NCBI GenBank assembly: GCA_964457555.1
Contig: CAYWHA010000015.1
Coordinates: 7,834-71,833, forward strand
Direction: 5' to 3'
Origin: an uncultured Solibacteraceae bacterium
GTDB taxonomy: Bacteria > Acidobacteriota > Terriglobia > Bryobacterales > Bryobacteraceae
DNA length: 64,000 bases
A program made the translations under genes and the position numbers. Shown in pieces: positions 48,428 to 64,000 of the stretch (position 1 is its first letter; every line of letters begins with the position of its first letter). Under the pieces are notes generated by a model. That model had not been told where the DNA came from and ran no database searches. It saw nothing but the letters and a program-made list of their open reading frames with translations.

Positions 48428-48445
<18 letters not shown>

Positions 48446-51211
48446 CCTCCGCGAGCTCCTGTTCAACGGCGCCGGGTATCCAATTAAACAGAACTGGTCG
48501 AGCGCAAACAACACCACCGACTCCACCCCGCTCGCCAGCGCCAAGCCTCTCTCTTTCAACCAAGGCGTCGTGTAATCGCTGATTCCCACCAGGTGGCTGC
48601 TCTGCGCCGGCGGGAACCCAAACTGCCCCGGCAATGCAATCGAGCCACGCACCTCGTCCAAATCGCGGTCGCCCGTGAAAGTGAAGTTTTCGGTTTTCAG
48701 GCAGGTCAGCGCCGCGGCGGTCCAAGCCGCGGTCGGATAGTTGACCAGCTTATTCAATGGCGTGTCGTTCGTATCCACCGGGTACAGCGATTCGAAGCGC
48801 GCGTTGGGGTATACGGCCTGCACGAAAGCCATGATCGCATTGGTGAATGCGCCGATCAGCGTGGGCAGGAACGCGCATTCATCCGGGAAGTCCGTGGGCG
48901 GCGCGTTTTGGCTCGGAACGATCCCCATCGGCCGTCCGTATGCCGTCTGAAACGCGCTCTTGGTATACGCGTCGTAGAATGGCATGCCCGCCGCCGATGC
49001 GTTGTACCACCACTGGACTTCCCCGAATTGCAGGTACGGAACCAGACCCGCGGCGCTCATGAGGTTTGCCATATCCAGGTAGACCTGTTGCCAGAACGCC
49101 GTGCTGGCCGGCGAGAAATTGGTCTGAAGCGATGGCGTATTGAGCAGCGCCGCCGTGCCGTCCGGGTAGCATTGTGCGATCCCCGTCGCTGGTTGCGGGT
49201 CGCCATCCTGAAGCTCCATGGAAAACGCCGCCGCCACGTCGATTCCGTACCCCTTCAGCGCCGCGAAGTAGCTCGAGTGCCAGTCACGCGCCGCCCGGTT
49301 GATGCGCGGCGTCGCCGTCAGGTCGGTGCGCCACCCCGCCGCCCACGCCATCGTCGAGAGGTCCCCGTCTACGCCCCCGGCCAGCGGCCCGCTCGCCACT
49401 GCCGTCAGGTGCTGGCTGCCGCCCGTATCCGGGACGACGGTCATCCCGTTTCCAGCCGTCCCCATGGTGCGCGATCGGATGGTCAACACCGCCCCCGCCG
49501 CGCTCGCCTGCACCGCGGTGGCGCCGGCGTTAACCGCGAGCGCCAGCGCGTTGGCCACGCTCGCCGCCGTGTCCGCCATCAAGCTCATGTGTTGAAACAG
49601 CGCTCCACCGACGTTGACCCCGGTGTACAGGCCGAAATCCGGCGTACCCGCGAGCGTCACGGTAGCCGTAGCGTACTGCTGGCCGGGACACGCCAGTTCG
49701 TAAAACCACATCGCGCCGGCATAATGGTTCGCCCGCCCTTGGAAGCCGAGCTTGTCGATCAGCCAGGCGGTGCGCTCCGGTGCAAGGCAAATCGAGTGAT
49801 ACGTGTCCCAGTCCGTCGCCAGCGTCGTGCGCGGGGTGCTGGCGATGGTCGGCAGGTTCGCCGTCGGGTAGGCGATCTCGAAAAAGTCGAAATAAAAGAC
49901 GCCGATTCCGGTCTGCGCGGCCGTCACGGTATGCTGACCCGCGTTGAGATCGGCCACCTTGATCCGGACCAGCAAGTCCTCCACGTCGTCGAACGCCAGA
50001 TTCGCCGCGCTGGTCGCGCCGTCAATGGTAATGGAAATCGGCGCGCCGGCCCCGCCGCCGTTGTTGAACATGCGCGTTCCCAGGAACAGCGTGTGGCCTC
50101 CCGCCGCCGTGTAGGTGCACGACACGGACGATCCTGGCGTCTGCGTGGATCGAATCGACCCGCCCGAGTAGTTGCCCGTCACCGCCTCGTCCCACGCGCC
50201 CGAATAGACCACCAGGTTCGAAGAGTCTTCAGCGCGCCAGCTTCCAGGGCCCGCCACCTGATACGTAAGATTCGCTCCGGCCACCGTCCAGTTTGAGACC
50301 GTCACCTGGAATTCCGTTCGCGCGAAGTTGCCCGGCAGTTGATTGGGGGCCCAAGTCCACCTCATCATCCGTACCGAATTCGTCGGCACCTGGACCAGCG
50401 TCGTGAAAGCCGGCTCCACGTATCCCTGCAGATTGCCGAAATTAAGAGCAACATGCCACAGCGCCGTCGACGTTCCCCCGCTCATCGTCTGCGAGACCGG
50501 CTGCCAGATTTCGGTCTGCGCGCCGCTCGCGTTGCCGTAAACCCCCACACGGTTTCCGTTGGCGCCGGCTGCGGCCTTGTACTGCAGCGTAATCTGCGCG
50601 CCCGATGCCGTGGCCGTCATGCCGGTTGCGGCGGTGTTCGCGGCGATCGCGTTCGCCAGCAGTGTGGCCACGCCCTCCAGCGTGTCGTTGTAGTACATCA
50701 TGTGGGTCGCGTGCTGGCTCGATGGATCCACGCCGTCCGCCGCCGCCCAGGCCAGCTCCACGTAATCGTTGGCCGTTACCGCCCCCGTGAGTTCGAAAAT
50801 CGCCTGCGCCGGCGTCGGCGCCGCGCTCCCCGTCGCGGGCGTCGCGTTCGCAGCCAGCGGCACCTTGTACTCCAGCTCGACGCCGTCCGATCCCGTCGCC
50901 CAGATCCGCAGGTACGGCCAGTCTACCGTCGGCCACAGCGTGCAGTCCATCGCCATGCAATTCTGACGCGCCTCATCGTAGGAGAGCTGCAGGCCGCTCA
51001 GGTCGCCGTCCGGCAGGCAGCGCAGCGCCGGGTGTTCGAAAACGTTGTCGCGGCGCCACTCCACCACCGCCCAATCGAATTGCTGGCGAAACGACCCCGA
51101 TACCGTGAACCCGGTCGCGCTGGTCGCGCTCAAGGCCGCGGCCGCGCTCGGTTGATAGAAGTAGCACTGCAGGTCCCGGTTGGGTTGCAGCTTGGTGAGT
51201 TGTTCCGCCAT
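48428..51211 (-). CDS. Large distal tail protein (candidate fibre/receptor-binding or glycan-binding protein), no family recognised
   Basis: 927-aa ORF starting 7 nt after the stop of the host-specificity-like gene. It is the last gene of the module. Ala/Thr/Gly-rich beta-type composition, with a C-terminal part that looks enzyme-like (YLQFGEVQWWYNA...). Confidence 0.6.
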
Positions 51212-51218
51212 GTTGGTC

Positions 51219-54200
51219 TCACATCCGGATTAGTACGGTCAGATCGGCCCCCGGATACGTTTGCCCCACCGAGAGTATCGCTAGACTAACTTGCGACCCG
51301 GCTGCCAGCGGCGCCAGGGTATTGCCCGCCACGCTATTGGACACCAAAGTCGAGGTCCCGAAAGTCAGCGGACAGTATAGGTTCCCGTTGACGTTCAACT
51401 GAAGTTGTATCGGCGCATCGGCCGCAGTACCCAGCACCGCATAAATCTCGCGAACCGCGTGCGAGGCATCCATCACCAGGGCTGGAGCCGCGTATTGGTC
51501 CACAGCCAGAAAGCCATCCACCTGAATCGTGTACTGTCCGCCGGAGGTTGTGCGCAGTCCCAAATCGGTGGTGTGGGTCAGGGCAATGCTGCCCATTGGG
51601 CTGCTTCCCTTATTGTTGGTCACGACTAGCTCGGCGCTTGCCACGCGTACATCCGGCAGGATTACCGGGAAGCTCCAACTCCCACTGTAAGGACTTCCGA
51701 AAAACTCGGGTGGAAACGCCGCGATCGCGCTCGTGCTTGCCAAATGGTAAACCGGCTCCGGCCCCGCCGTGTGCGCGGTTGCCGGGCTTCCATCGCATCC
51801 TCGCGTCACCTGATAAGTGGCGCCGCCGTTGAGCGCGGCTGTCACGCACATGACTTCCTGGTCGATCTGCAAATAGCTGCCCTTCTGCCCCGGCCCCGGC
51901 AGGCTGAGGTTGATCGTGGTGTCCGCCACTCCCACCGCGTTCGCCAACGTGATTCCCGGCGTGCCCACCAGTTCGTTCCAGTAGTACAGCGTCAGCGTGG
52001 CTGAGGATATCGTGCGCGTGTTCGTCAGGTTGGGGAATGCCACGCCGCTCAACGCCACGGTTCCGCCCTGCGCGCCGTTCCCCAGCCCGAAGAGCGGCTG
52101 CGGCGGAATGGCGGCGTCCCCAAGCCCGCCAATCTGCCAGCGCGTGACCGTCGAAATACCCGGGTCGCATTCCACGTTGTTCACGTTCGCGGCGCGCCCC
52201 GTAATCTGCGCCACCTCGCCCAACCAGTTCGGAATCGCGAACTGCGCCGTCGCGCTGGTGGTCGTCGCGCCGGGATTCCATCCGCTCACCGCCGCCACGA
52301 AGTAGCTGGTGGCATCCGGCTCCACCACCCACGCCGGCGATACCGTTAATGTGGTCGCTGTGTTCGATCCGATCGTCGCTTCCTGTCCCGCCCCGGTCCC
52401 CCGCGTGATCCGCGCCGTCATGCCGCGATACGCATTGACCGTCATGTTGAGCGTTCCGTTGCCCACCGTGTTGGCGGAGTACAGGGTCGCCGCGATCTCC
52501 GGCAGCGCTTCCATGCGCCAGTAGAAATTCGCGTGATCGAAATTGGGGTCCGGCGGCGCGATGTTCAGCGGCGGAAGCCCCGGGTCGGTAAACTGCCCCG
52601 CCATCGCCTGACTGCTCGCAATCCGGTACAATGCCGACGGAGACGCGCCGCGATAGACGTTGAAAGCCGCCGTATTGAGATCGAAGCTCAGCCCCGTCAG
52701 CGTAACGGCGCTTCCACTGCTGGCGATCCCCGCCGTCACCAGGAACGATAGCGCGCTTTCATTCCCCGCCGAATCGAGCGCCGAAACCGCGTAGTACAGA
52801 ACCTGGCCGCTCGCCAGCGTTCCACCCGGCGCCACAGCCGCCGACAAGCTCACAAAGGGGATGCCCGGACCTGCCTCCGCGCTCGTGGCTGGTGGAACGT
52901 AGCTCACCGTGACGGTCACCTGGACCGAGCCGTCGCTGGTGACCGCGTCGGTCTCGGTCACCCCGAACTCAAGATTCCCATTCGCATCCACCACGCTGCC
53001 GATCAGCGGCCGCGGCACACCCATGCCCGCGTCGCTCTGCCGCCGCCCTCCCGTTGCCGAAGTGGGCTGCCCGTTGCTGTCTGCGTACCAGGCGTCGTCG
53101 TGAATCTGCGCCGTGATCGTCGTTACGCGATGGTTGATCCCCGGAGCGATTTTCAAAATACGGAACGGCTGCCGGGTGAATCCTTCTTTGAGGTACGTGA
53201 CCGTGATAATGTCGCCCGGCCGCACTCCGAACGATTTCACGCTCGTTTGGAATTCGATGTACGTGTTGCCCAGCACCGATTTGTTCAGGTTCAGTTGCAG
53301 GATACGCCCTGCCTGGTCGTTGTTCGGAAGCCCTATCGCGTTCAGGCTCGCCGTAATCTCTTGCCCGCAAAGCGTTACATCGTCCGCATCGGCTACCGTG
53401 TAGCTATCTTGCTGGTAATCGTTCAGCGAGTCCTGGAACTCCACGCTGAGACTGTTCGGAGTGTCCGCCATGCTGCGCGAATATACCCGCACGCTCGGTG
53501 CGCCGCTCGGCAGCCGCAGGATTCCGGTAACGCCCGTGCTGCCGTCTCCAAACTCGTAATTCGGCCATCCGCCGTTGAGCGGCTCCGTACTGTTCGACCA
53601 CGCCGGCTGCGTGGGCTGCTCGTTCGCGATGGTGTCCTCCACGCGAAGCTGCAGCAACCCCGCGCTGCTGTAAGTCAGTAGTAGCCGCGCCGTAATCCGC
53701 ACTCCGCGCGCCACGTCGCCCGCGCTCTTTCTCGTCTTCAGCGCCATGTTGCACTGGAACTTGGCGAGCGATATCGCATTGCCGTAGATGTCCACCGCAT
53801 CGATCTGCTGGTCGCAGTCCGCCGCCGCCGCCGCGAAGCTCGCAATGTCAATCTCCGCCGCGCTCCAGCCGAGCCGCCGCAAGATGTCCAGCAGAATCCA
53901 CGCCGGATTGTTGCTGAATTGCGCGCCCGTCTGCACGCCATTCGCGTCGTAAATCGCAATTGTCAGTCCCTGCGCCAGCACCTTGATTCTGGGCAGCGTC
54001 GTCCCGTTGTTGATCTGGTTTGGAACCACCACCGAAAGGTACGCCATGCTTCCGTACGGATCGCCGCCCGGAAAGTTCGCGTCGAACTGCCCCGTGCGTT
54101 GCCCCAGGCTCTGCACGTTGTACCACCCCGTAGCCGTCATGTTGGCGCCGGGGATGCCCAGCGGAATCTGCACCTCGTTAACCAGGACGATCAGCGGCGC

Positions 54201-55079
54201 CTGCATCTCGCCGATCCCCAACAGGACTTGCATCCTCGTCAGATTGCCGTCGTTGCGCGCAAAAACGATGGGGGGCGCGTACCACGCCGTCCCGTACACC
54301 ATCGGCACGAAATCGTTGTACAACGCCGTGTTCAGGCTGATCGCCGAGGCCTGCACGTTCCCCCCGGAGGGCCGCACCAGGATCGACGCCGGCACGAACT
54401 CCAGGCCCCCGAAATTTCCCCACATCCCTCGCGCCTGGCAGTCGCTCCGCGTGTATCCGCAGCTTGTGTACGCAACGCCGCCGTCCAGGTTCCCCGCGCC
54501 GCCCGCAATGTCCGCCGAGTACCCGCAGCGGTAGTACGAAGAGTATTGCCCGTTGCTTCCTCCGTCGATCGCTTCCGTGCGCTGTTCCGCGGTCGCCGGA
54601 AAATCCCACGGGCACGTCCGCTCGATCCGCACCTGCGGCAGCAGAACCCTCTGCAAGCTCATCCGGTTGATCGCCGTCAGCCGGATCGTCGCCTCCAGAA
54701 TCTCGTCCGGCGGATTGCAGATTCCCTGGAACAGCGCCGCGGTCGCGCTGTCAGCCGTCTGAGTCGCCAGATTGTAAATCAGAAAACTCACCGTTAGCCG
54801 CGCGCCCTTAAAACCGATGGATTGCTCCATCTCCGAAAAGTACGAATCCGCGTTCGCTAGCACAATCGAGATCTGCGATAGCCCGTCCACCCCTTGCGCC
54901 GAGGCCGGCTGCATTTCGAAAGCGCTGTGTTCGAGCACCCGCGCCGCATAGGCCTTGCCATTCACGGTGATTCCGTGCGTGCACCAGCTTTCCGTATGCC
55001 CGTTCGCCAGCGTGCAATCGAACAGTAGAAGCGGCGCATCCGTGATCGCCTGCTCCGTCAGACTATAGATGGTTGACAT
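51219..55079 (-). CDS. Tail tip/host-specificity protein: DUF2163 plus BR0599-like hub N-terminus fused to a lambda-J/RcGTA-g15-like central region and FN3-like repeats
   Basis: N-terminus LLLFDCTLANGHTESWCTHGITVNGKAYAARV plus a Cys cluster (RTCPWDF, YYRCGY, YTSCGYTRSDCQARG). The centre, NNPAWILLDILRRLGWSAAEIDIASFAAAAADCD...KFQCNMAL, is typical of Phage-tail_3/J-like proteins. 1286 aa. Confidence 0.65.
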   Translation of the reverse strand: MSTIYSLTEQAITDAPLLLFDCTLANGHTESWCTHGITVNGKAYAARVLEHSAFEMQPASAQGVDGLSQISIVLANADSYFSEMEQSIGFKGARLTVSFLIYNLATQTADSATAALFQGICNPPDEILEATIRLTAINRMSLQRVLLPQVRIERTCPWDFPATAEQRTEAIDGGSNGQYSSYYRCGYSADIAGGAGNLDGGVAYTSCGYTRSDCQARGMWGNFGGLEFVPASILVRPSGGNVQASAISLNTALYNDFVPMVYGTAWYAPPIVFARNDGNLTRMQVLLGIGEMQAPLIVLVNEVQIPLGIPGANMTATGWYNVQSLGQRTGQFDANFPGGDPYGSMAYLSVVVPNQINNGTTLPRIKVLAQGLTIAIYDANGVQTGAQFSNNPAWILLDILRRLGWSAAEIDIASFAAAAADCDQQIDAVDIYGNAISLAKFQCNMALKTRKSAGDVARGVRITARLLLTYSSAGLLQLRVEDTIANEQPTQPAWSNSTEPLNGGWPNYEFGDGSTGVTGILRLPSGAPSVRVYSRSMADTPNSLSVEFQDSLNDYQQDSYTVADADDVTLCGQEITASLNAIGLPNNDQAGRILQLNLNKSVLGNTYIEFQTSVKSFGVRPGDIITVTYLKEGFTRQPFRILKIAPGINHRVTTITAQIHDDAWYADSNGQPTSATGGRRQSDAGMGVPRPLIGSVVDANGNLEFGVTETDAVTSDGSVQVTVTVSYVPPATSAEAGPGIPFVSLSAAVAPGGTLASGQVLYYAVSALDSAGNESALSFLVTAGIASSGSAVTLTGLSFDLNTAAFNVYRGASPSALYRIASSQAMAGQFTDPGLPPLNIAPPDPNFDHANFYWRMEALPEIAATLYSANTVGNGTLNMTVNAYRGMTARITRGTGAGQEATIGSNTATTLTVSPAWVVEPDATSYFVAAVSGWNPGATTTSATAQFAIPNWLGEVAQITGRAANVNNVECDPGISTVTRWQIGGLGDAAIPPQPLFGLGNGAQGGTVALSGVAFPNLTNTRTISSATLTLYYWNELVGTPGITLANAVGVADTTINLSLPGPGQKGSYLQIDQEVMCVTAALNGGATYQVTRGCDGSPATAHTAGPEPVYHLASTSAIAAFPPEFFGSPYSGSWSFPVILPDVRVASAELVVTNNKGSSPMGSIALTHTTDLGLRTTSGGQYTIQVDGFLAVDQYAAPALVMDASHAVREIYAVLGTAADAPIQLQLNVNGNLYCPLTFGTSTLVSNSVAGNTLAPLAAGSQVSLAILSVGQTYPGADLTVLIRM

Positions 55080-55845
55080 AGATAATGTTCACCGTGCACG
55101 AATGGCGGTTTACGCCCGTGGTCGTGACTGCCAGTTGGTCGTCCCTCAGACGCGCGTTCTGATAGACTCCGCCGCTGGTGCTCGCCTGGTACACGGACGC
55201 CCCCGCCTGCGGTTCCGCTTGCATCCCGTATACCTGCACCTGAGCGGCGGCCGGAATTTGTAGCCCGAAACAAATCTCGGCCGCCGCCGCGTCTCCGCTC
55301 CCAACGGAGACGAACCTGTTCCATTGCGTTTGAACTGCTTGGCTCGCTTGGCCGCTCCCCAACAGCATCGTGACCGTCGTAGGCGCGGCTGCCCGCAGAT
55401 AGACGCTCAGGCAGTATTTGTATCCGCCCGGCGCCGTGAGCGTTTGCGAGATCGTCTGCGGCGCCGCGCCTCCATTCGTCAAACTCCACGCTCCCGTTCC
55501 GCCGGTCGGGTCCGCAATCCCGCTGGTGATCGAAAGCTGGGGATCGCGCGCCCAGGCCGCCTGCCCCGGCTCCTCGCTCCATGCCAGCAAATTCGCCCCC
55601 GGGTCCAGGAACGTGAACCCGTTCAGCGTCCCTTGCGCCGACGCGAAGAACTGCTCCAGCGCCGTTAGCTCCGCGTCCGACAGACCCGTGTAGCTCAACG
55701 CCCAATCCGTCGTCGATCCCGCCGCGTCCGCCAGCTTGATCGAGCTTCCGTCCAACGCGGCGTTGATCGCCGTGCGCGCGCGCCGTTCGGTCCGGATCGG
55801 AAACTGGCTCAGCGCGCCCGTTCCAAGTTGTGGATACGTCAGCAT
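55063..55845 (-). CDS. DUF2460-like distal tail protein paralog B (260 aa)
   Basis: MLTYPQLGTGALSQFP...LSDAELTALEQFFASAQGTLNGFTFLDP matches the FP...FF..RxG...F.F.DP pattern of TIGR02217/DUF2460 (RcGTA g12-type). It carries an extra C-terminal beta-rich domain and overlaps its neighbours by 7 and 17 nt. Confidence 0.55.
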   Translation of the reverse strand: MLTYPQLGTGALSQFPIRTERRARTAINAALDGSSIKLADAAGSTTDWALSYTGLSDAELTALEQFFASAQGTLNGFTFLDPGANLLAWSEEPGQAAWARDPQLSITSGIADPTGGTGAWSLTNGGAAPQTISQTLTAPGGYKYCLSVYLRAAAPTTVTMLLGSGQASQAVQTQWNRFVSVGSGDAAAAEICFGLQIPAAAQVQVYGMQAEPQAGASVYQASTSGGVYQNARLRDDQLAVTTTGVNRHSCTVNIIYVNHL

Positions 55846-56207
55846 GACGATCCTCGGTTCTCCATCACCCTCAATACCGTTGCGCCGTTCATCTCTCCGC
55901 TGGCCGTGGTTGGCAGCGTGTCCGTTTCCAGGCTGCAGCTTGGATAAACCGTACCGTCCCAGGGATCGGTGAATGCGAAGTTCCCAAACGCTCCCTGGTT
56001 GTCCTCGAAGAACTGCTCGATGGCCGCCATTTCGCCTTCGTCCAGTTGGCTAAGCGGGATCTCCCATCCGTGCAGCGGGCCGGCGCAGTCCTGGTAGCGT
56101 TGCTCCGTGCCGTCCAGGAAGCGTAACGCCTGGTTCTGATAGCGCACTTTCCGCATCGCCGGATACTGCATCGCGGCATTGGTTTTCAATTTGGGGAAGG
56201 TCGCCAT
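55839..56207 (-). CDS. DUF2460-like distal tail protein paralog A (122 aa)
   Basis: MATFPKLKTNAAMQYP...LDEGEMAAIEQFFEDNQGAFGNFAFTDP aligns by eye with the N-terminal 85 aa of 55063..55845. Confidence 0.55.
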   Translation of the reverse strand: MATFPKLKTNAAMQYPAMRKVRYQNQALRFLDGTEQRYQDCAGPLHGWEIPLSQLDEGEMAAIEQFFEDNQGAFGNFAFTDPWDGTVYPSCSLETDTLPTTASGEMNGATVLRVMENRGSSC

Positions 56208-56209: not shown

Positions 56210-56875
56210 CTATAGGTCGTTGACCACATCGTTGATTGAATTGGAATTGAGCATTGCGTTCTTTACCGCCGCTGCGATGTCCGCGCTATGGTCCATGAAC
56301 CATCGCGCATCGAGTGTCTGGCCGTTCGCCGTGGTTTGCGCCGGCCCCGCCACCGCTCCCGCCCCGCTCGAAACGCTGCCGGCCGACCCTCCCGCGCCCG
56401 TCGAAGATCCGCCCAGCGCCCTTGCCGTTCCCATTTGGTCGTAGCTGACGTTGCTCAACGTCCCGCCGCTATCGGCCGCCTGAAAATCGAGTGACGGCGG
56501 CATGACGTACTTAGTCAGTGGCGCGGGTGACTCGGATCCCCCGCCGCTGAATAACCCGATCAACCCCCCAATCAACGGAATCAGACCGAGGCCGCTCTCC
56601 AGAACGGTCTTCGCCACTGAACCCGCCGTCGCTCCGCCCCCGCTGTTGCTTGTCTTCGACATAGCCTCGGCTTCGGTCCTTGCCGGCCGCGGCAGCGTCG
56701 ATGGCGCCACCATGTCTGCTCCGGCCTCGCCTGCGCCGCTCGATTGCGATGCCGTCTCCGCCAGCAAGGCCGCCAGTTCTTCGGTCCCGGCCTTCGCCGC
56801 CAACGCATCGGTCCCTTCGCCGCCCGCAGCCTCTATGAAACTATCGAGTAACTTCTCTTGTATGGTCTTGGCCAT
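56210..56875 (-). CDS. Short tape-measure-like protein (221 aa, Gly/Ala/Ser-rich with a central hydrophobic segment)
   Basis: Sits in the tape-measure position directly after the G/GT genes. Helical N-terminus, hydrophobic GLGLIPLIGGLIGLFSGGG, low-complexity remainder. The assignment rests on synteny only. Confidence 0.45.
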   Translation of the reverse strand: MAKTIQEKLLDSFIEAAGGEGTDALAAKAGTEELAALLAETASQSSGAGEAGADMVAPSTLPRPARTEAEAMSKTSNSGGGATAGSVAKTVLESGLGLIPLIGGLIGLFSGGGSESPAPLTKYVMPPSLDFQAADSGGTLSNVSYDQMGTARALGGSSTGAGGSAGSVSSGAGAVAGPAQTTANGQTLDARWFMDHSADIAAAVKNAMLNSNSINDVVNDL

Positions 56876-57556
56876 TTCTTGTTTCCGTCGAAAGCTCGTT
56901 TTCCAGGATCGCGAACGCCTCCACTTGCCGGGCGCTCAACTCCGCGAAGCCCGTCCCTCCGACCCGCCGCCGCACCAGAAACTCCTCCACCAGCGTCAGG
57001 CTGTCTCCCGTGACATACGATTTTGGACAGGATGTGAGCGAGGCGCCCCTCCTCGCCCACACCAGCGGCGCGCCCGTCCCCTCCGGGTGCGCCATCCATC
57101 CGCATCGCCGCTTCTGTTCCAGACCGGATCTCCGGCAGGCGTCGCACTTCCAACCGGCCTGGTTGGAAAACTGAAAGTGGAAGGCGACAATTAGTTTTTT
57201 CGTTCCGCCTCGTCTAGCCCCGTCTCCGCCCGAACCGCGGCCAGCGCTTCTCGAAACAGATCCTCCGGCCCGGCGCCCGCCAGCGACTCCGGCGTGGCTG
57301 CCGCTCCGTCCACCTCCAAACCCACAACCTCCCGTAAACCCCAAGTCACGTAAAGCCGGTCGATCTCCTTCTGCAGCAGCGCCGCATCCATTTTTTCGCC
57401 CGCGCCGCCCCCCGCCTCCAGAAACTCCATCCGCCGCATCAGTTCGCGCACCTGCCGCATCAGATCCACCCGCCGCGCAAACGACATCTTCGCCACCGTG
57501 TACCGCACCCCCGCCGCAACCGCCGATTCCACCATCCTCACGCTCTCGTAAGTCAT
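56841..57556 (-). CDS. Tail assembly chaperone GT-like fusion made by -1 programmed frameshift (about 238 aa)
   Basis: The -1 frame is open from the heptamer (57194-57200) to the stop at 56841 and has protein-like sequence (LIVAFHFQFSNQAGWKCDACRR...). It has no start codon for its first 33 codons. Span length is 716 nt, which equals 3n-1 as expected for a -1 shift. Confidence 0.5.
57191..57556 (-). CDS. Tail assembly chaperone, G-like (121 aa)
   Basis: Small acidic helical protein between the tube candidate and the tape-measure-like gene. It ends ...EAERKN-TAA, with the slippery heptamer in its last codons. Confidence 0.6.
   Translation of the reverse strand: MTYESVRMVESAVAAGVRYTVAKMSFARRVDLMRQVRELMRRMEFLEAGGGAGEKMDAALLQKEIDRLYVTWGLREVVGLEVDGAAATPESLAGAGPEDLFREALAAVRAETGLDEAERKN
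57194..57200 (-). promoter_or_regulatory. -1 ribosomal frameshift slippery heptamer A_AAA_AAC
   Basis: Minus-strand zero frame reads GAA CGA AAA AAC TAA. This gives X_XXY_YYZ = A_AAA_AAC in the correct phase, immediately before the stop codon. Confidence 0.55.
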
Positions 57557-57569
57557 AGCCCCATCCCTC

Positions 57570-57698
57570 TTGACGCGGAGACGCGGACGCGAAGCGCCAC
57601 AAATCCACCCTGCATTCCCGAACCTCTTATAGAGGTTTTCTCCGCGTCCCCGCGTCTCCGCGTCAAAGCCTTTCTCTGCTTACTCTCCGCGTCAAAGC
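57570..57698 (-). repeat. Inverted plus direct repeat complex built on TTGACGCGGAG, between the tube and chaperone genes
   Basis: Left arm TTGACGCGGAGACGCGGACGCG (57570-57591) pairs with right arm CGCGTCCCCGCGTCTCCGCGTCAA (57643-57666). A central 7-bp hairpin AACCTCT-TAT-AGAGGTT sits at 57621-57637. TCTCCGCGTCAAAGC is repeated at 57655-57669 and 57684-57698. Confidence 0.85.
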
Positions 57699-57703
57699 TT
57701 GCC

Positions 57704-58912
57704 CTACCCGAACGCCACCGTGATCTCGTTGTCCACCGTCCCCTGCGCCCGCGCCCCCCGGAACTTCCACTGCAGCCGGTTCTGCCCGTCCTCGAATTCC
57801 GGAACCTCCGGGATCACGCTGTTCATGTTGACCCCCATCATCAGCCCTTGCGCTTGCCCCAACTGGAACATCACGCTGATGGGCGATTGCTGCCGCGCCG
57901 CCTGGTAAAGCCCGATGGTCGCGCTGTCGTCCATGCTGTAGAGTTCGAAAGCCGCCGTCACCGTGCGCCCCCCGGGCATGATCGCCTGCGGCAGGTTCGT
58001 CCCGAATTCCTTGGCCCGCGCGGCCAACCCGTTCTTCAGCGTTACCGTCCCGCCGGTGATCGTGAAGAACTGCGAGGGCGCGCCCAGCCACGCCTCGCCC
58101 ATGTTTCCGGGCACAATCGAGTAGTCGAACGCGCCCAGCGCCGGCTCCGCCGGGAAGTTCGTCAATGTCCCTTCCCCGCTGCTGAAGCTGCCACTGTCCA
58201 GTAAATCCTGCGCGATCCCGCTGAAGCGGAATTCCTGATAATCCCCGTTCAACAGGATGTCCATCTGGTCGATAGCCCCGCCGCACAGCAGTCTCTGCAC
58301 CGCCGTCGCCGGCGACCAGTAGTCGTAGACGCTCACACTCGGCAGTTCCGTCGCCGGTACGTAAGTCACCGTCGGCGCCACCGCCGTGCCCGCCCCCGGC
58401 AGAGCCGTAAACGGCGCGTTCAATTGCACCGCGGTCGCACTCGCAATCGCCGTCACGAACCGGATCTCGCCGCCGCAACTGACCGCTTGCCCCGCCGTCA
58501 GACCGTGCGCCGCCTGGAACACCAGGCTCCCGGCTGCCGTGCTCGAAGCCGCCGTTCCGCCCGCGAATTCCAGCGGCGTGCCGCCCAGCGCCGCCTGGAA
58601 CAGCGGTCCGTACGCCGGCCCCGGCAGCGTATCGGGCGAGGGCGCGTTGCCCGAAGGCCCGGCCGCCGCCTGCTGCCAGCTCGTCAGAAAGGTTCGAAGC
58701 TCGAAGCTGGTCCGCCTCCTGCCGCCCGCCGGCAGTCCCGGAAATGTCCGGCTGCCGGTCTTGTCCTTCCGCGTGGTAACTTCCAGTTGCTGCTCCACCG
58801 CCAGCTTCAAGGCGGGAATCCGGTTCGCCGAGGTGACCGCCGATACGTTGCCGTAGGCGCTCTCCAATGCCGTGTAGAATCGGTTTGCGTTAGACGAAAT
58901 GTACGAGGACAT
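57704..58912 (-). CDS. Major tail (tube) protein candidate, 402 aa
   Basis: Located after the connector genes and before the chaperones. Beta-rich, Ala/Gly/Thr-rich sequence. Its start lies 2 nt after the upstream stop. Assignment by synteny. Confidence 0.5.
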   Translation of the reverse strand: MSSYISSNANRFYTALESAYGNVSAVTSANRIPALKLAVEQQLEVTTRKDKTGSRTFPGLPAGGRRRTSFELRTFLTSWQQAAAGPSGNAPSPDTLPGPAYGPLFQAALGGTPLEFAGGTAASSTAAGSLVFQAAHGLTAGQAVSCGGEIRFVTAIASATAVQLNAPFTALPGAGTAVAPTVTYVPATELPSVSVYDYWSPATAVQRLLCGGAIDQMDILLNGDYQEFRFSGIAQDLLDSGSFSSGEGTLTNFPAEPALGAFDYSIVPGNMGEAWLGAPSQFFTITGGTVTLKNGLAARAKEFGTNLPQAIMPGGRTVTAAFELYSMDDSATIGLYQAARQQSPISVMFQLGQAQGLMMGVNMNSVIPEVPEFEDGQNRLQWKFRGARAQGTVDNEITVAFG

Positions 58913-58913
58913 G

Positions 58914-59411
58914 TTAGTTGGTGCTCACTCCTATCTCGAGGGCGATCTTCGCCGTCTGTATGAAATTCCTGCCGCCATGTTTCACCGCCGCGAACGATAC
59001 CTCGTATCCGCCTGCGTAAAACATCCCGTTGCCCCAATCCCCCCGGCTCGCGCTCAACGTCTCCGTCACCGCGTCCGTATAGAGTTCCAGGGCGTCTTGC
59101 AGACCCTCCAGCCGGTCGTGCGAGTGCCGCACCTCCACCGTCATCTGGGCCGAGCCGGAGAAGCTCCGGGACTTCTCCTTCAAGGCGTTCACCAACTTCT
59201 CGCAATACACGTTGACCGCCGGATAGGTGACCGTTTCGCTGCGCTCCATCAGGTCCGGCGCCACGTTTTGCGCGCGCACCTGCGCCGTGTTCAGCGCCGC
59301 CGGCGCGCTGTCCGCCGCCGAAAGCGCCGCCAGCGTCGCATTGGCCCCCGCCGGCGCGACGATCAGTTGAATAATCCGGTCGCTGATCGCGCTCCCTATC
59401 TTCTGTGTCAT
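58914..59411 (-). CDS. Head-tail joining/tail terminator-like small structural protein (165 aa)
   Basis: ORF 58914..59588 trimmed to ATG 59411, which overlaps the upstream stop as TAATG. Assignment by position between the coat and tube genes. Confidence 0.45.
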   Translation of the reverse strand: MTQKIGSAISDRIIQLIVAPAGANATLAALSAADSAPAALNTAQVRAQNVAPDLMERSETVTYPAVNVYCEKLVNALKEKSRSFSGSAQMTVEVRHSHDRLEGLQDALELYTDAVTETLSASRGDWGNGMFYAGGYEVSFAAVKHGGRNFIQTAKIALEIGVSTN

Positions 59412-60181
59412 TAGCCCCTCCGCAGCACTCTTGGAACTGGCTTGATGTAGTTGGGAGCTTGCCCTTGTCCCGCCCGCCGGCCGGTCGTCGCCAGCGTCCC
59501 GGGTTGGGTCCAGGTCTGTGCGGTTCCGATCGGCGTCCCATTCTGCCGGAACATCGAATCGGGGCCGCCGCCCACATACACGTTCCATCCCTTCGCGTTA
59601 TTCGGTGGATCCACCGGTTGTACCAGCAGCGTGCTGGCGACCGTCGAGACAGTAGCCGGCAAGGCGCTCGCCCCCTCCTCGCCGGCCTGGTTGGTCCACG
59701 CCATCGTCGCGTAGTAGGTCGCGTCCGGTAGCGCGGTCGGCGCGCCCACTACCGCCGTCACGGTGGGCATCGCCGCTCTGGGGATCGGATCGAGCGCCAC
59801 TCCCGCCCCAATTTGAACCAGCTTGTCGTAAGCCCAGCTCGCCATCGAATGGAATTGGTCCCGCTTGCCCGCATACCGGTCGTTCAACTGGCTGTTGTAT
59901 GCGTCGGCGTACACCATCTCCAGCGCGCGGTAGCTATGCCAGAGCCGCAGCGCCGGCGTCACCACCACGCGGCTGACGCTCGGCTGCGGCGAAAGCCCGA
60001 ACTGGTCCGGATAACTCGTTCCCGTCAGCAGTACTTCGAGCCCCAGCGCCACTTCTTCCTGCGCCAGGGCCAGCTTTTGCGTCACGTCGATACTCTCGGC
60101 ATTGGCTACATCCAGCAGTTGCGAATCCTGCGCCGAAAGATCGTCCATGCTCGATACGAGACCGTCCGTGAACAGAGCCAT
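59411..60181 (-). CDS. Head-tail adaptor-like protein with a C-terminal beta-sandwich-like domain (256 aa)
   Basis: N-terminal helical region (LSAQDSQLLDVANAESIDVTQKLALAQEEVALGLEVLL) resembles gp6-type connector proteins. Assignment by position, low certainty. Confidence 0.45.
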   Translation of the reverse strand: MALFTDGLVSSMDDLSAQDSQLLDVANAESIDVTQKLALAQEEVALGLEVLLTGTSYPDQFGLSPQPSVSRVVVTPALRLWHSYRALEMVYADAYNSQLNDRYAGKRDQFHSMASWAYDKLVQIGAGVALDPIPRAAMPTVTAVVGAPTALPDATYYATMAWTNQAGEEGASALPATVSTVASTLLVQPVDPPNNAKGWNVYVGGGPDSMFRQNGTPIGTAQTWTQPGTLATTGRRAGQGQAPNYIKPVPRVLRRG

Positions 60182-60185
60182 GTCC

Positions 60186-60518
60186 TTACGCCGAGTCCTT
60201 CAGGGCGTCCGCGACCCCCTTCAACTTGTTGAGCTCGGCCGTCGTCAGCACCGAGAACTGCACCCGCGCCGCCGCCGCTGCCTGATCGGCTGCCTGTTTC
60301 GCCACCGCCACCGACGCGCGGAATGCAGTCGCGGCCGCGCTAGTGGCCAGACTGGCTTCCCCTTCCACAATCATCTTCGCCGCGATGTCGCGCGTGACCT
60401 CCGTCAGCACTCCCGCCTTGCCGCCCTCGGACGTCTCCAAACTCACGATCACCGGATAAGGATCCGCGATGTTCGCTTCCGTCGTTCGTATCTTCTGGTA
60501 ATAACTTGTCAGATCCAT
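60186..60518 (-). CDS. Small structural/hypothetical protein (110 aa)
   Basis: ORF 60186..60566 trimmed to ATG 60518 with GGAGAG (60526-60531) 7 nt upstream. The longer TTG-start version would translate through the hairpin repeat. Confidence 0.5.
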   Translation of the reverse strand: MDLTSYYQKIRTTEANIADPYPVIVSLETSEGGKAGVLTEVTRDIAAKMIVEGEASLATSAAATAFRASVAVAKQAADQAAAAARVQFSVLTTAELNKLKGVADALKDSA

Positions 60519-60540
60519 CTTCTTTCTCTCCTTTTTTAGT

Positions 60541-60646
60541 CGAGGGGACAGACGAATCTGTCCCAAGGCGCCGCCGCTGCGCGAGGGGACAGACGAATCT
60601 GTCCCAAGGCGCCGCTGTTGCGCCGCGTGGACAGATCCGTCTGTCC
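60541..60646 (-). repeat. Two 34-bp direct repeats, each carrying an 8-bp-stem hairpin, plus a third related hairpin
   Basis: CGAGGGGACAGACGAATCTGTCCCAAGGCGCCGC occurs at 60541-60574 and 60582-60615. Hairpins lie at 60545-60564 and 60586-60605 (mRNA sense GGGACAGA-UUCG-UCUGUCCC) and at 60629-60646 (GGACAGA-N4-TCTGTCC). Confidence 0.9.
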
Positions 60647-60700
60647 CCGGTCTGCCCCGGTCTGCCCCGGTCTGCCCCGGTCTGTCCCCGGTCTGCCCCC
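60645..60700 (-). repeat. Tandem 10-bp repeat CCCCGGTCTG x5 (sense strand GGGGCAGACC), abutting the coat gene stop
   Basis: Copies at 60645-54, 60655-64, 60665-74 and 60675-84, then a 1-nt insertion, then 60686-95, followed by CCCCC (60696-60700). This gives six G4+ tracts on the coding strand. Confidence 0.95.
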
Positions 60701-61620
60701 TACGTATTCACCTGCACGCCCGAAGTGTTTCTCAACACCGCGCACCCGTACAGCACGTCCACCGTGAACTGCTGAGCCAGCGTATCCGGCTGGTAGCTCA
60801 TCACCACGCGCATCCCGAAGTTGCCCAGCTCCGCGTACTCCGCGATCGCGCCGGTCCCCGGCAGTGGCTGCGGCAGCCGTCGGATCACCAGGCCAAGCGC
60901 GTCCTTCGTGAACGCCATGTTGTGGGTCGTCACCACCGCCGGCGGCGTGCCCGTCTGTTGCACAAACTGCGAGCGGAACACGTAGAAGTCCTTGTACTTC
61001 CCAACCGTGCCGTCGATCAGCGCGTTCAAGCCCGCGGCCCCCGCCGTCTGGAACTCCTCGAACAGCGGAATCTGCCGCCATGCCGAGTAAGTCGCGGCGT
61101 TGACTACGATGTACTTCCTCTCGCTCGGTGGCACCATCGCTTGGAACAGCGTGGTTTCCGCCGCGTCGATGGTCGCTTCCGTGATCGCCGTGCCCGCCGT
61201 CCCCACCACCGGGTTCGAGTTGAAGCCCGCGTACAGGCTCAGCAGGTCGGTTTCGATCTTTTGCGCGATCGCCGCCACCGATGGCTGCATGTACAGCTTC
61301 AGCAGGTCCGGCACTGCCAGCACCCGGATTACGTCCGGTATCTGGAACGTCGCTTCCGCGTGCGTATTCAGCACGATCGCCGCGTTGTTCAGAGGCGGGT
61401 TCTGCGTCAGTACCGCCCCGCCGTTGTTCAGAATGTTGTTCGCCACCATCGTTGGCGGTATCGGGATGTTGACCGTGTCACCGGCATTCGCCAGCACCGG
61501 CTCGTAGTCGCGATTCACAAGGTTCCCCATCACGAGGTTCCCCACCAGTACCGGCAAAGCGTCCGCCGCCACCAGCTTCACAATCGCGCTTGCGACGTTT
61601 GTTGAGGTAATTGCTGCCAT
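60700..61620 (-). CDS. Major capsid protein, P22-coat-like (HK97 fold) family
   Basis: 306 aa. The pattern NLVNRDYEPVLANAGDTVNIPIP..., the size, and the position after a scaffold-like gene fit the P22 coat protein family as recalled. AGGAGAA is upstream of the ATG. Confidence 0.7.
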   Translation of the reverse strand: MAAITSTNVASAIVKLVAADALPVLVGNLVMGNLVNRDYEPVLANAGDTVNIPIPPTMVANNILNNGGAVLTQNPPLNNAAIVLNTHAEATFQIPDVIRVLAVPDLLKLYMQPSVAAIAQKIETDLLSLYAGFNSNPVVGTAGTAITEATIDAAETTLFQAMVPPSERKYIVVNAATYSAWRQIPLFEEFQTAGAAGLNALIDGTVGKYKDFYVFRSQFVQQTGTPPAVVTTHNMAFTKDALGLVIRRLPQPLPGTGAIAEYAELGNFGMRVVMSYQPDTLAQQFTVDVLYGCAVLRNTSGVQVNT

Positions 61621-61675
61621 TCGTTCTCCTGTCTTTTCTTTCTGCCGGGCCTTTCGGGCCCGTACTGTTTCGTTT

Positions 61676-62272
61676 TCACAGCCCCCGTAGGGTCTGCGAC
61701 GCCACGCGCACGATTTCCTCTCGTACCCGCCGCATCTCTTCCGCGCTCATGCCTGGCCGGATTTGGTCGAGAGACACCGTCTCCCGCCCCTCTGCCGGCG
61801 CCTTCAGGGTCGCCGTCATTCCGGTCCCCCCCGCGATCCGAGCCGGTAGAAACTCCGGGTTCTCCGCGACGAAGGCCGACAGATATTCCTTCATACTCAT
61901 CTGTCCGCTTTCCCCGCGAGCTACCAGCCGCCCGTCTTCCGTCCGCTCGATTTCGTCCTTGACCGCCTTGAACGCAAGGTCGATCTTAGCTACTCCCAGC
62001 CGGTGCAGCTCCGCTCGTACCATCGAGCCGCGCTCCGCTTCCTCCGCCAGCTTCCGGCTGTGCTTGTTCTCCGCCACCAGTTCGTTCAGCCTGCGCTCCA
62101 GTTGTTCCCGCCGCTTCCGCTCGTCCTCCAGCTCCGCCTTGTGGGCCGGTTCGCTCTTGGCCTGCTCGTTGCTGGCGTATTCCTGAATTGCTTGCCGCAC
62201 GATAGCCTGCACGTCTATTCCTTCCATAACCCTCCTGTCAGTGGGGCGGGCCTCCTGGCCTGCCTTCTTCAA
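61676..62272 (-). CDS. Scaffolding protein candidate
   Basis: Highly charged coiled-coil region (AHKAELEDERKRREQLERRLNELVAENKHSRKLAEEAERG), lying between the portal and coat genes. Start is uncertain: TTG 62272 or ATG 62227. Confidence 0.55.
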   Translation of the reverse strand: MKKAGQEARPTDRRVMEGIDVQAIVRQAIQEYASNEQAKSEPAHKAELEDERKRREQLERRLNELVAENKHSRKLAEEAERGSMVRAELHRLGVAKIDLAFKAVKDEIERTEDGRLVARGESGQMSMKEYLSAFVAENPEFLPARIAGGTGMTATLKAPAEGRETVSLDQIRPGMSAEEMRRVREEIVRVASQTLRGL

Positions 62273-62304
62273 CTAATCCTTTCCCGGATAGCGATCCATC
62301 CGAA

Positions 62305-62374
62305 CCGCGAACCTCCGTTCCGAGCCGCGAACGTCCGTTCCGAGCCGCGAACGTCCGTTCCGAGCCGCGAACGT
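62305..62374 (-). repeat. Tandem 20-bp repeat CCGCGAACGTCCGTTCCGAG x3.5 between the portal and scaffold genes
   Basis: Copies at 62305-24 (one mismatch), 62325-44 and 62345-64, plus a half copy at 62365-74. Confidence 0.95.
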
Positions 62375-62409
62375 AAGAGAGCGGTTCTTACTGTCTCCCC
62401 GGTCTGCCC

Positions 62410-63792
62410 CTACTCCCCGTACTTCATCCCGTCAATCTCTTCCGCCACCTGGTTCTTAACTTCCTGCCGCGCGTCGCACAAGTACTTGAACGCCAAATTC
62501 TTGAACACCTGCTTCTTCAACGTCTCCGACCCGATCCCCATATCCAGCAGCTTCTTTGCGTCGTCCAACTCCCCGCTGTAATCGTCGATATCGAATTCGT
62601 CCAGGCCCGATACGTCAATCGACACTCCGTCCTGCCGCGCCGCCGCAATCGCCCGCAGCACCTGCTTCATGCTTTCCTTCACCGTGTCTCCATACGCCCG
62701 CAGCACCTCCTGCGTCACGCTGAAGTCCCTCTGCTTGCTGATGCCGGAGATCCGCAAGTCCCCTCCGCTCGGCGTCCCGGCTTGGTTCATCAGGTAACAC
62801 ACCCGGTAGATTTCGTCCTTGAGCTGCACCAGGTTGTCCGCCGCAATCTGATAAACCTTCCCCTCCGGCTCCGTCCACCCGAACCGGTCCTGCGGCCCCA
62901 GTTGGATGTAGTACGACTCCCCTACAATCTGGTTCCATTCCCGCTCCGAATAAACCACCGGAGTCGCGAACAGCCCCATCGTCAGCGCCCACGCCAGCGC
63001 GTTCGATTTATTGAAATGCTCCAGTTGCAGCAGCGCCGCCTTGTTCGTCAGCCACAGCCCGTCCGATACCTGCATGCGGAACAAGGGCACGCGCCGCAAC
63101 GCCGCCAGCCCGTGCTGCCCTTCGTCCACTAACTCCACCGCGCTTGTCTCACCCGCCTTCCGGTAGATCTGGAAGTTCTCGCGGTCGTAGTAAATCCACC
63201 GCGTTTCCCTCCCCCATCGCGCGTCCGTCACCTTCGATTGCTGCAGGCACGTCGTCCGGATTACCGCCCATTCCAGGCTTCCCGTCTCGTCGTGGTTCCA
63301 GTTGATGACCTCCTCCGGACTGTAGTCCACCAGGTACGCCCGCGACCGCCCCGATGCGTCCTCTTCCGCCCGCGTCATCGCCGCCCCGTTCGCCCGCGGA
63401 AAATCCACCACCGTGTACGAGCAGCCGTAGATCATCGTCTGCACGAACCTCTGCCGGAAAAACTCACTTAGGTTCGTGTCCTTCAAATCGCAATTCGCCG
63501 ACAGCACGCTGAAGTAGTCCTTCGCCGCCGCGTCGTTTCCTTCAATCGCCACCGCCGGCGCCCGCCGGATCAGCGTCGCCGCGTACCAGTCCACGATCGA
63601 CCCGATGTAGTTCTCGTAAAATACCCGGTTCAGCCGCTCCTGGTAAATCTCGCCCGGCTCCTTGTGCCGCCGCACCAGGTAATCCGTCGCGTTTGCGCGC
63701 AGCCGTTCGCCGCCCGCGTAAAGGTCCCTGTACTGCTTCCACATCGCCTTGCGCGCGATGTATTCCGGATGTTCGCGATTGATGTTTTGCAT
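62410..63792 (-). CDS. Portal protein (DUF4055-like portal family)
   Basis: ORF 62410..63963 trimmed to ATG 63792, 7 nt after the terminase stop. 460 aa. N-terminus WKQYRDLYAGGERLRANATDYL...YQERLNRVFYENYIGSIVDWY resembles DUF4055 portals. Position fits. Confidence 0.65.
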   Translation of the reverse strand: MQNINREHPEYIARKAMWKQYRDLYAGGERLRANATDYLVRRHKEPGEIYQERLNRVFYENYIGSIVDWYAATLIRRAPAVAIEGNDAAAKDYFSVLSANCDLKDTNLSEFFRQRFVQTMIYGCSYTVVDFPRANGAAMTRAEEDASGRSRAYLVDYSPEEVINWNHDETGSLEWAVIRTTCLQQSKVTDARWGRETRWIYYDRENFQIYRKAGETSAVELVDEGQHGLAALRRVPLFRMQVSDGLWLTNKAALLQLEHFNKSNALAWALTMGLFATPVVYSEREWNQIVGESYYIQLGPQDRFGWTEPEGKVYQIAADNLVQLKDEIYRVCYLMNQAGTPSGGDLRISGISKQRDFSVTQEVLRAYGDTVKESMKQVLRAIAAARQDGVSIDVSGLDEFDIDDYSGELDDAKKLLDMGIGSETLKKQVFKNLAFKYLCDARQEVKNQVAEEIDGMKYGE

Positions 63793-63799
63793 TTGGTTC

Positions 63800-64000
63800 T
63801 CAGTTGAGCAGCCTGACTGTCCGCTCCCCGATGCTTTGCCTTCTGTTGTATTGGTCCCATACCAGATACCCCAGCGCGTCCGATAAGTGCGTCCGCAGCC
63901 GGTCCCGGTCTTTGTCGATGATGCATGAGTCTGTCTTGTATGACACCTGCTCGAAGTCCGCAATCAGTTCCTTGCACTTGCCATCTACTAACAGCCTGAT
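63800..64000 (-). CDS. Terminase large subunit, C-terminal fragment (5' part beyond window)
   Basis: Not in the ORF track (no start in window). Manual translation gives IRLLVDGKCKELIADFEQVSYKTDSCIIDKDRDRLRTHLSDALGYLVWDQYNRRQSIGERTVRLLN-stop. The ...L..D.E......IDK.....TH.SDA.GY pattern is typical of terminase nuclease C-termini. Confidence 0.55.
   Translation of the reverse strand: MRLLVDGKCKELIADFEQVSYKTDSCIIDKDRDRLRTHLSDALGYLVWDQYNRRQSIGERTVRLLN

Follow-up and report, generated by a model that had tools for sequence, protein, structure and literature searches.

In a 64,000-nucleotide stretch of DNA (hereafter, the window) from an uncultured Solibacteraceae bacterium (assembly GCA_964457555.1, contig CAYWHA010000015.1, positions 7,834 to 71,833), I found a run of phage head and tail genes. 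It is probably a phage-derived, non-autonomous module of about 17 kb that was acquired by an ancestor of the Bryobacterales, has been kept by selection, and works like a gene transfer agent (GTA). The part of the module examined in the window is the minus strand of 48428-64000; coordinates are those of the window unless prefixed L001. Tightly packed, co-oriented genes run head to tail and uninterrupted from 48428 to the window end, all on the minus strand. An earlier note, made from the letters of the window, had described such a module at these positions, and the gene calls agree with it. Its assignment of the genes to phage structural proteins was borne out by hidden Markov model (HMM) matches for the large terminase subunit (TerL), portal, P22-type coat, tube, DUF2460, J-like and distal proteins. 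The note had wavered between a GTA-like locus and a cryptic prophage. A GTA-like or otherwise domesticated locus is favoured here, while the prophage alternative is disfavoured by the checks of the borders and of synteny and selection.

The window ends inside TerL. A 135.5-kb peat-metagenome contig of JGI (L001) matches the window over 13,301 bp at 100% identity and adds 7.6 kb past 64000. A look beyond 64 kb for the genes of an ordinary prophage had been set beforehand. It was found that this sequence holds the rest of TerL, a small gene, a leader and host genes, and no prophage genes appeared. Upstream of TerL, the module comprises the small gene, which is of the size of a small terminase subunit (TerS), and the non-coding leader alone. 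The TerS-size gene overlaps the start of TerL. It was called as 112 amino acid residues (aa) on L001, but 84 aa is more likely, with the ATG at L001 6296 and its GGAGGAG ribosome-binding site as the start. Farther out lie divergent unannotated open reading frames (ORFs), a patatin-like gene, a GT2 glycosyltransferase gene, GlmM and YbbR. On the tail side, only host genes were found past a fumarase gene, which agrees with the earlier statement that no integrase, att repeat, lysis or regulatory genes appear there. HMM scans detected no integrase, repressor, replication, lysogeny or lysis gene in the module, in the L001 extension or in the tail-side flank. There is no tRNA gene in the L001 extension or within about 4.8 kb of the module, and no direct repeat of at least 14 bp brackets the module. 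The only tRNA gene of the window, tRNA-Asp (43542-43618, minus strand), was considered as an integration site and rejected; it lies 4.8 kb off, behind five host genes, with no matching repeat. Thus, the features of a temperate prophage (an integrase with att sites; lysogeny, replication and lysis modules) are missing both at the borders and inside. Since it is without replication, integration, regulation and lysis genes, the module is not an autonomous phage.

Is this module common in related bacteria? I scanned genomes, one per GTDB species, with the 402-aa tube protein as the query. At E<=0.001, the tube protein has 2475 homologues, of which the first 120 align over nearly the full length with an identity of 67% or more. 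In total, 389 species-representative stretches match it, and gene content was read from the best 80 of these. Almost all of the 80 bear the labels Bryobacterales, Solibacteraceae, Bryobacteraceae or Terriglobia; metagenome bins are the source of many loci. The cultured species Solibacter usitatus Ellin6076 also carries the module (locus L107), with exact UniRef matches Q01Z36, Q01Z43 and Q01Z30. Loci that are long enough have essentially all 16 genes in the identical order with a constant span of about 16.5 kb. Reading frames are intact in 986 of 1018 gene copies (approximately 97%), despite divergence of the module proteins down to about 60% identity. A test of synteny and purifying selection in related genomes had been proposed in the earlier note. 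Across an order, the locus proved to be syntenic and intact, with dN/dS values of 0.05-0.5 for all 16 genes (three comparisons). Against the nearest relative, dS is equal for module genes (0.15-0.34) and adjacent host genes (0.20-0.34). The module is not decaying.

An AsnB-type asparagine synthase gene lies upstream in 33 of 66 loci, and in 23 of 55 loci (42%) the gene directly downstream is O-antigen-ligase-like. This AsnB and ligase context is spread over most of the tree of concatenated module proteins. The alternative flanks fall into coherent clades on that tree: amidohydrolase and GalE with HD; DnaC-like and AsnB with TypA; STK and HAMP with SDR and ligase; and PanE. Such clade-coherent flanks are expected if a single ancestral site was passed down vertically and rearranged now and then, but not if integration had happened repeatedly. 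The context in the window, with GT2 and patatin genes upstream and fumarase downstream, is lineage-specific. Its upstream side is common to the 93%-identical locus L004, and fumarase adjoins the module in none of the 80 fetched species loci. A Pfam search of 96 representative flank ORFs from more than 60 species gave host families only, none recurring more than twice among the families listed.

These data bear on two rival explanations. In one, the loci are an ordinary group of temperate prophages, common throughout Bryobacterales and either active or inactivated not long ago. Virus pipelines do call the module a provirus (IMG/VR; Demina et al. 2025, PMC11924767), all of its genes are bona fide phage structural genes, and a related 60-kb phage-like contig exists, as described below. 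Yet integrase, repressor, replication and lysis genes are lacking at the borders here and do not recur there in more than 60 species, no att repeats were found, and the extent is a constant 16.5 kb. In addition, the host flanks are conserved and follow the module tree, 97% of the gene copies are intact despite divergence to about 60%, and GC content and dS are host-like. I therefore regard a prophage group as very unlikely. In the other, the module is a helper-dependent phage satellite, like the capsid-forming phage-inducible chromosomal islands (cf-PICIs). It resembles these in being small and in having its own terminase, portal and capsid genes without replication genes. However, integrase, regulatory and replication-initiation genes would be expected in a satellite and none was found, and capsid-forming islands have no tail genes, whereas the module has a full tail. 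Its chromosomal position is conserved, with flank changes specific to clades of the module tree. A satellite is thus very unlikely.

A conserved leader was found directly upstream of the first gene. It is non-coding, about 145 nucleotide residues in length, and lies at L001 6113-6257 (plus strand), 1.4-1.5 kb past the right end of the window. With a profile made from 18 loci, it was detected in 64-65 of the 66 loci with upstream sequence, at a constant strand and distance to TerL. It occurs once in 71.6 kb of this genome. The leader has the invariant boxes TCAC, TGTTTTCA and TGnTAnnnT, the last of which resembles an extended -10 element and is present in 30 of 30 sequences. I read this box as a DNA-level extended -10-like signal. 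About 46 nucleotide residues past it, there is a hairpin rich in GC, after which five to nine T's come in a row; in L001, the hairpin is at 6223-6249 and is followed by eight T's. Pairing in the hairpin amounts to 97.5%, and three of the pairs show compensatory changes. Many loci have a GGAG-type ribosome-binding site and an ATG within 9-13 nucleotide residues after the T-run, so there is no space for a promoter 3′ of the hairpin. Q-type antitermination controls late operons of phages. By analogy, transcription of the module may have to read through the intrinsic terminator in the same manner. As no regulator is encoded nearby, the read-through factor would presumably be encoded elsewhere in the host genome. 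The terminator in the leader thus suggests a trans-acting factor, with control by antitermination or attenuation. A search of Rfam with the leader gave a chance-level match to McaS only (E = 0.66). Two further ideas were dropped. A second helix, between the TGnTA box and the region before the terminator, is 66-77% paired with almost no covariation. An IHF site in the conserved TTTTCAA box is not claimed, as none of 30 sequences fits the strict consensus.

The tail assembly chaperone genes are also conserved in their mode of expression. The slippery heptamer A_AAA_AAC at 57194-57200 closes the G gene, with TAA next to it. The -1 frame continues without a stop to 56841, another 115 codons or so beyond the heptamer. 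Thus, the G/GT pair proposed in the earlier note has both the heptamer and the open -1 frame. Of 77 related loci, 76 have kept the heptamer and all 77 the -1 frame relation. Overlapping ORFs, a -1 slippery site and a place between the tube and tape-measure genes are all as in siphovirus G/GT genes. The base composition had been said to look like that of the flanks. Indeed, the GC content of the module is 0.631, compared with 0.621-0.661 in the flanks, and GC3 (GC at third codon positions) is host-like. Order-wide conservation, a stable context, host-like rates and composition, a conserved frameshift and a conserved leader are hallmarks of domestication. As a side observation, both GC skew and AT skew are strongly negative on the plus strand of 50000-64000, with GC skew down to -0.24 compared with about 0 to -0.1 elsewhere. 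Thus, the coding strand of the module is unusually rich in G and A.

The genes of the window part are listed in Table 1.

Table 1. Genes of the module in the window, and the adjoining fumarase gene
Feature	Position	Strand	Basis or remark
TerL, 3′ end, last 67 codons	63800..64000	-	rest on L001
Portal, 460 aa, start MQNINRE	62410..63792	-	phrog_145, 5.6e-49
Scaffold-like, 183 aa, charged and helical	61676..62227	-	position between portal and coat
Major capsid protein, P22-coat family, 306 aa	60700..61620	-	PF11651, phrog_283
Head-completion/decoration candidate, 110 aa	60186..60518	-	position alone
Head-tail connector candidate, 256 aa	59411..60181	-	position alone
Head-tail connector/tail-terminator candidate, 165 aa	58914..59411	-	position alone
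Tail tube candidate, 402 aa	57704..58912	-	phrog_290, 7e-9
Tail assembly chaperone G, 114 aa	57191..57535	-	read from sequence
T extension in the -1 frame, G-T fusion	56841..57200	-	frame open from slippery site
Tape-measure-like, 221 aa, Gly/Ala/Ser-rich	56210..56875	-	directly after G/GT; composition
Dit/gpM-like distal-tail protein, 122 aa, DUF2460	55839..56207	-	PF09343
DUF2460-like N-terminus and RcGTA head-spike-fibre-type domain (residues 84-224), 260 aa	55063..55845	-	
J-like tail hub/central fibre, 1286 aa	51219..55079	-	PF13550, phrog_31
Distal receptor-binding candidate, 927 aa	48428..51211	-	PF23845, TIM barrel
Class I fumarase, boundary marker outside the module	46904..48445	+	PF05681, 4e-73; PF05683, 5e-53

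The tight coupling of the genes is as the earlier note had reported. The stop codon of the 256-aa gene shares a TAATG at 59411 with the start codon of the next gene, further overlaps are present at 55839-55845 and 55063-55079, and the convergent fumarase gene overlaps the last module gene by 18 bp (48428-48445). The full TerL is 436 aa in length (L001 6511-7821), with matches to phrog_2 (6.5e-36) and PF03237 Terminase_6N. For the portal gene, an ORF of 517 aa with a TTG start was discarded as an over-extension; the gene call of the source contig is 460 aa. The portal is 67-96% identical across Bryobacterales loci. The coat protein matches PF11651 P22_CoatProtein (1.6e-14, 54 bits, cut-off 24) and phrog_283 (1e-38), and its mean identity is 85% among 21 loci compared. 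The scaffold, the three connectors and the tape measure named in the earlier note were not confirmed and are candidates by position and composition. HMM support stops at the sole, weak match of the scaffold-like gene (phrog_368, 0.008), which is kept at 63-97% identity. Scans of Pfam, PHROG and NCBIfam gave no match for the three connector-size genes or the 221-aa tape-measure candidate. Identities across loci are 44-92% for the 110-aa gene and 49-92% for the 165-aa gene. The 221-aa gene, whose product contains a hydrophobic Gly-rich segment, is the least conserved of the module (31-84%). Some homologues of the tube candidate have PF18906 Phage_tube_2. An AlphaFold model of this protein from a 15-sequence alignment was unusable (pLDDT 39.9).

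In the tail tip, the 122-aa protein matches PF09343 (DUF2460; 1.9e-9, 37.7 bits, cut-off 30.4), covering only about the first 80 of the 205 model positions. It also weakly matches PF05939 Phage_min_tail of the gpM family (16.9 bits, cut-off 39) and has no match in NCBIfam. The 260-aa protein is its paralogue; it scores 26.4 bits with PF09343, under the cut-off, and 44.3 bits with NF048003 GTA_spike_fiber (cut-off 36). The 1286-aa protein matches PF13550 Phage-tail_3 (1.7e-10) and phrog_31 'central tail fiber J' (6.5e-21). In NCBIfam, it is far under the cut-offs of lambda_TipJ (21 bits, cut-off 1950) and GTA_megatron (18.2 bits, cut-off 800). Sequence searches of the PDB with the 927-aa, tube and 1286-aa proteins returned nothing meaningful.

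Some observations concern the neighbourhood. Between GlmM and the module, L001 has a minus-strand block (2101-5883) of GT2, 142-aa and 105-aa ORFs, the patatin-like phospholipase gene, and 274-aa and 97-aa ORFs. The phospholipase has a weak match to CBASS lipases. I considered whether the patatin, GT2 and small ORFs are part of the element and rejected this. The GT2, 142-aa, 105-aa and patatin genes recur only in L004, the closest relative, which itself lacks the 274-aa and 97-aa ORFs. Since the block is not conserved beyond L004, I treat it as host flank. In many species (L004-L083), the module lies between one or two AsnB genes and an O-antigen-ligase-like membrane protein gene, sometimes with an SDR gene between. 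The module may thus reside in or beside a surface-polysaccharide locus, which is of note beside a carbohydrate-binding distal protein. Two bins with the module are labelled Verrucomicrobiia (L012, DATJYJ010000182.1) and Candidatus Limnocylindrales (L075, DATNFO010000007.1). They are probably mis-binned or contaminated, because their AsnB flank is 76% identical to a Bryobacterales AsnB reference. Two contigs of one bin (CAZARO01; L047 and L068) both have the tube region, which may mean two copies or strain heterogeneity; this is the only such doubling among the 80 loci.

The 927-aa protein at the distal end was analyzed by structure prediction. Its sequence matches PF23845, the TIM barrel of 'non-contractile tail sheath' proteins (8.8e-19, 68.1 bits, cut-off 27). 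N-terminally, it scores 13.5 bits with PF23844 (cut-off 27), which some homologues carry. An AlphaFold model from 25 homologues has a pLDDT of 79.3 and a pTM of 0.78. The best Foldseek matches in the PDB are chains of the phage N4 tail complex, 9lc0_M and 9yf5_SA (E of about 1e-8, TM 0.53-0.54). The likeness to N4 gp65 and the tail complex (9lc0, 9yf5) thus consists of PF23845 above the cut-off and a superposition of the model. However, about one third of the 927-aa protein aligns, at 17-18% identity, with TM taken on a 415-aa target, and N4 has a podovirus tail whereas the tail tip here is of the siphovirus type. Beta-sandwich domains of the model match CBM35, CBM22 and xylanase folds. The gp65 protein of N4 binds the N4 receptor. 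In three loci (L015, L016 and L022), the homologue is 31-33% identical to the window protein, compared with about 55% in most species, while the other module genes are typical (50-80% for the rest of the module in such lineages). It looks as if the receptor-binding protein may have been replaced or diverged fast in these lineages. This drop in identity fits a receptor-binding role, and I infer that the 927-aa protein recognises carbohydrates.

The distal protein is also at the centre of the main rival to the GTA reading, in which the domesticated particle serves a function other than transfer, as a PBSX-like killer or by interacting with surface polysaccharides. In a killer particle, the tail and the distal protein would harm competing cells, and the DNA in the head would be of no relevance. 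The evidence for domestication is the same for both. The 927-aa protein, with its TIM barrel and CBM-like domains, is the most lineage-variable part, which fits target specificity under diversifying pressure, and TerL weakly matches the model of PBSX-family terminases, TIGR01547 (3.5e-7, under the cut-off). On the other hand, terminase, portal, scaffold and coat are conserved at least as well as the tail, which speaks for a role of DNA-filled heads, even if PBSX, too, has retained heads. HMM scans found no toxin or lytic domain in the tail-tip proteins. Such a function is rather unlikely in my estimation.

Where did the module come from? As a comparison set, 50,697 GenBank phage genomes were used. 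The best coat match there is 27.5% (Streptomyces phage Galactica) and the best portal match 26%. The tube protein has no match in these genomes, and no match found there exceeds 28%. The 927-aa protein matches phages via the TIM barrel only, at about 25%. Among 1.84 billion cluster representatives searched, relatives of the coat protein form a gradient, with identity falling from 75% via 57% to 33%. It was found that a coat relative of 56-57% identity lies on a 60.4-kb phage-like contig, L167 (Logan SRR21686420_10018), with a GC content of 53% compared with 63% for the module. L167 has TerL, portal, scaffold, coat, three neck genes and tube in the module order, at 38, 33, 33, 56, 39/28/28 and 31% identity, respectively. 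In contrast, it carries numerous additional genes in the same orientation, among them PAPS-reductase/DUF3440 and Apyc1-like (anti-Pycsar) genes, and has no detectable homologue of the G/GT, tape-measure, DUF2460, J or 927-aa genes. The head-to-tube relatives in L167 indicate that the module is phage-derived, and L167 is a candidate for a living relative of the ancestral phage. It is reasonable to view the module as a probable mosaic of a head-to-tube half of one lineage and a tail tip with RcGTA-, lambda- and N4-like pieces. The earlier note had proposed a P22-type head joined to an RcGTA/lambda-type tail tip. The coat, DUF2460, NF048003 and J-like matches support this, but a closer kinship with RcGTA fails, with no equivalog match. 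IMG/VR contains over 571 contigs related to the module. None of the best 80 is longer than 25 kb, and provirus calls among them have been cut back to 16.0-16.8 kb, the extent of the module by itself.

How would a GTA-like module work? Transcription would start at the conserved leader just 5′ of the first gene. If read-through of the terminator hairpin is required, the module would normally be silent and be switched on by a host-encoded factor. A headful-type terminase might then fill procapsids with available DNA, mostly host chromosome. Short-tailed particles would be assembled and could be released via lysis functions encoded elsewhere, and the 927-aa protein may bind a surface polysaccharide of the recipient cell. 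As heads, a packaging motor and a full tail are retained, DNA-filled particles are the most economical function.

Several points weigh against this GTA reading. Particle production, cargo and DNA transfer are read here from genes alone. Classical GTAs package essentially random host DNA, in pieces smaller than the locus, and deliver it to recipient cells. The nearest coat homologues are from phages of 60-90 kb; thus, the head may hold the whole 17-kb module, and a cargo below the size of the locus, which is expected of a GTA, may not apply. The counts of loci are counts of carriers and give no prevalence in Bryobacterales. Integrases and recombinases are absent among the best 25 of 100 Pfam families of the flank ORFs, so that an integrase in a single flank ORF is possible. 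Co-divergence of AsnB and the module is moderate (Pearson 0.77; Mantel 0/2000), with weak Spearman values for TerL and portal. It is driven by one close clade, and the orthology of tandem AsnB paralogues is uncertain, so that it deserves little weight. Finally, the sole publication on the group reads the module as a provirus (PMC11924767).

In that publication (Demina et al. 2025, Microbiome 13:79), the same family appears as 'group (i)' of putative proviruses, specific for Bryobacterales. It lists Ellin6076, KBS 96 and Paludibaculum fermentans P105, and the group, which includes IMGVR_UViG_639633060_000001 of Ca. Solibacter usitatus Ellin6076 (L107 here), is taken to show lysogeny. Its text does not contain the words GTA, defective, cryptic, domesticated, vertical and conserved. 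Earlier, Challacombe et al. (2011) had found no intact or degenerate prophage in Ellin6076 (PMC3174227). The study of 2025 described a new provirus group, whereas non-autonomy, order-wide synteny, selection and the leader are described here. No claim of a GTA for Acidobacteria, Solibacter or Bryobacter was found in the literature searched. As far as searched, the element family is already on record, and its non-autonomy, vertical inheritance, selection, leader and GTA-like reading are new.

Few GTA families are known, namely RcGTA-like, BaGTA, Dd1, VSH-1 and VTA. Each of them altered the view of gene flow in its hosts. I tentatively propose, with slightly less than even confidence, that the module is the first GTA family of Acidobacteriota, independently evolved and fixed in Bryobacterales, with a P22-type head, a composite siphovirus tail and leader antitermination by a host factor. 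Bryobacterales are among the most abundant bacteria of peat, tundra and forest soils and include carbon degraders. If the reading is true, order-wide particles would give soil bacteria an important and so far overlooked way to exchange DNA or to antagonise each other. The IMG/VR contigs, more than 571 in number, now enter the counts of viruses or proviruses and are used to argue for lysogeny. Should they be host loci, the lysogeny estimates and the virus-host links for Acidobacteriota would need correcting. Cultured carriers (Ellin6076; KBS 96 and P105 according to PMC11924767) make the question directly testable, and the leader with its terminator offers a handle on the control of the module.

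Finally, the module was compared with known particle systems. A tailocin does not fit, as the module has terminase, portal, scaffold and coat genes, all of them highly conserved. Nor does the tail tip have the lambda-type M-L-K-I-J order: there are the weak gpM-family match and a J-like central region (PF13550), and HMM scans found no homologues of gpL, gpK or gpI in the module. PBSX of Bacillus subtilis is similarly a chromosomally fixed, non-propagating locus with head and tail genes; its particles package host DNA. The PBSX locus measures about 28 kb and includes a repressor, a late sigma-like regulator and lysis genes of its own, and the tail is contractile. In contrast, HMM scans of the module found no such regulators or lysis genes, and its tail is non-contractile, with G/GT.

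The closest resemblance is to the GTA of Rhodobacter capsulatus (RcGTA, g1-g15). Both are clusters of about 15-17 kb with 16-17 genes for packaging, head, neck, tube and tail only. Further traits in common are chaperones made by frameshifting, a tape measure of small size, a distal-tail protein with DUF2460 and a hub protein that is very large and has several domains. In both cases, the cluster is passed on with the host over a large clade. Lysis and regulation genes of RcGTA lie outside its cluster, and HMM scans found none in or next to the module. The shared families are DUF2460, found above the cut-off in the 122-aa protein as in RcGTA g12 (DUF2460/TIGR02217), the GTA_spike_fiber domain and Phage-tail_3. 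However, RcGTA has a protease and an HK97-type capsid (g4/g5), whereas the module has a scaffold and a P22-family coat, with no protease found. The 402-aa tube, the extra N4-gp65-like distal protein and the different phylum also set the module apart. The N-terminus of the 1286-aa protein, which had been labelled DUF2163-like, has no Pfam match to this family (DUF2163/BR0599, RcGTA g13) even at E<=10, and this label is not supported. The g14 peptidase model and the other RcGTA equivalog and NCBIfam capsid models have no match in the module. With another type of head and no match to any RcGTA equivalog model, the module lies outside the RcGTA family; it looks like a domestication independent of that family. 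What it has in common with GTAs at large is a gene content of head, packaging and tail functions only, a vertically inherited chromosomal locus across a clade, and purifying selection on all genes.

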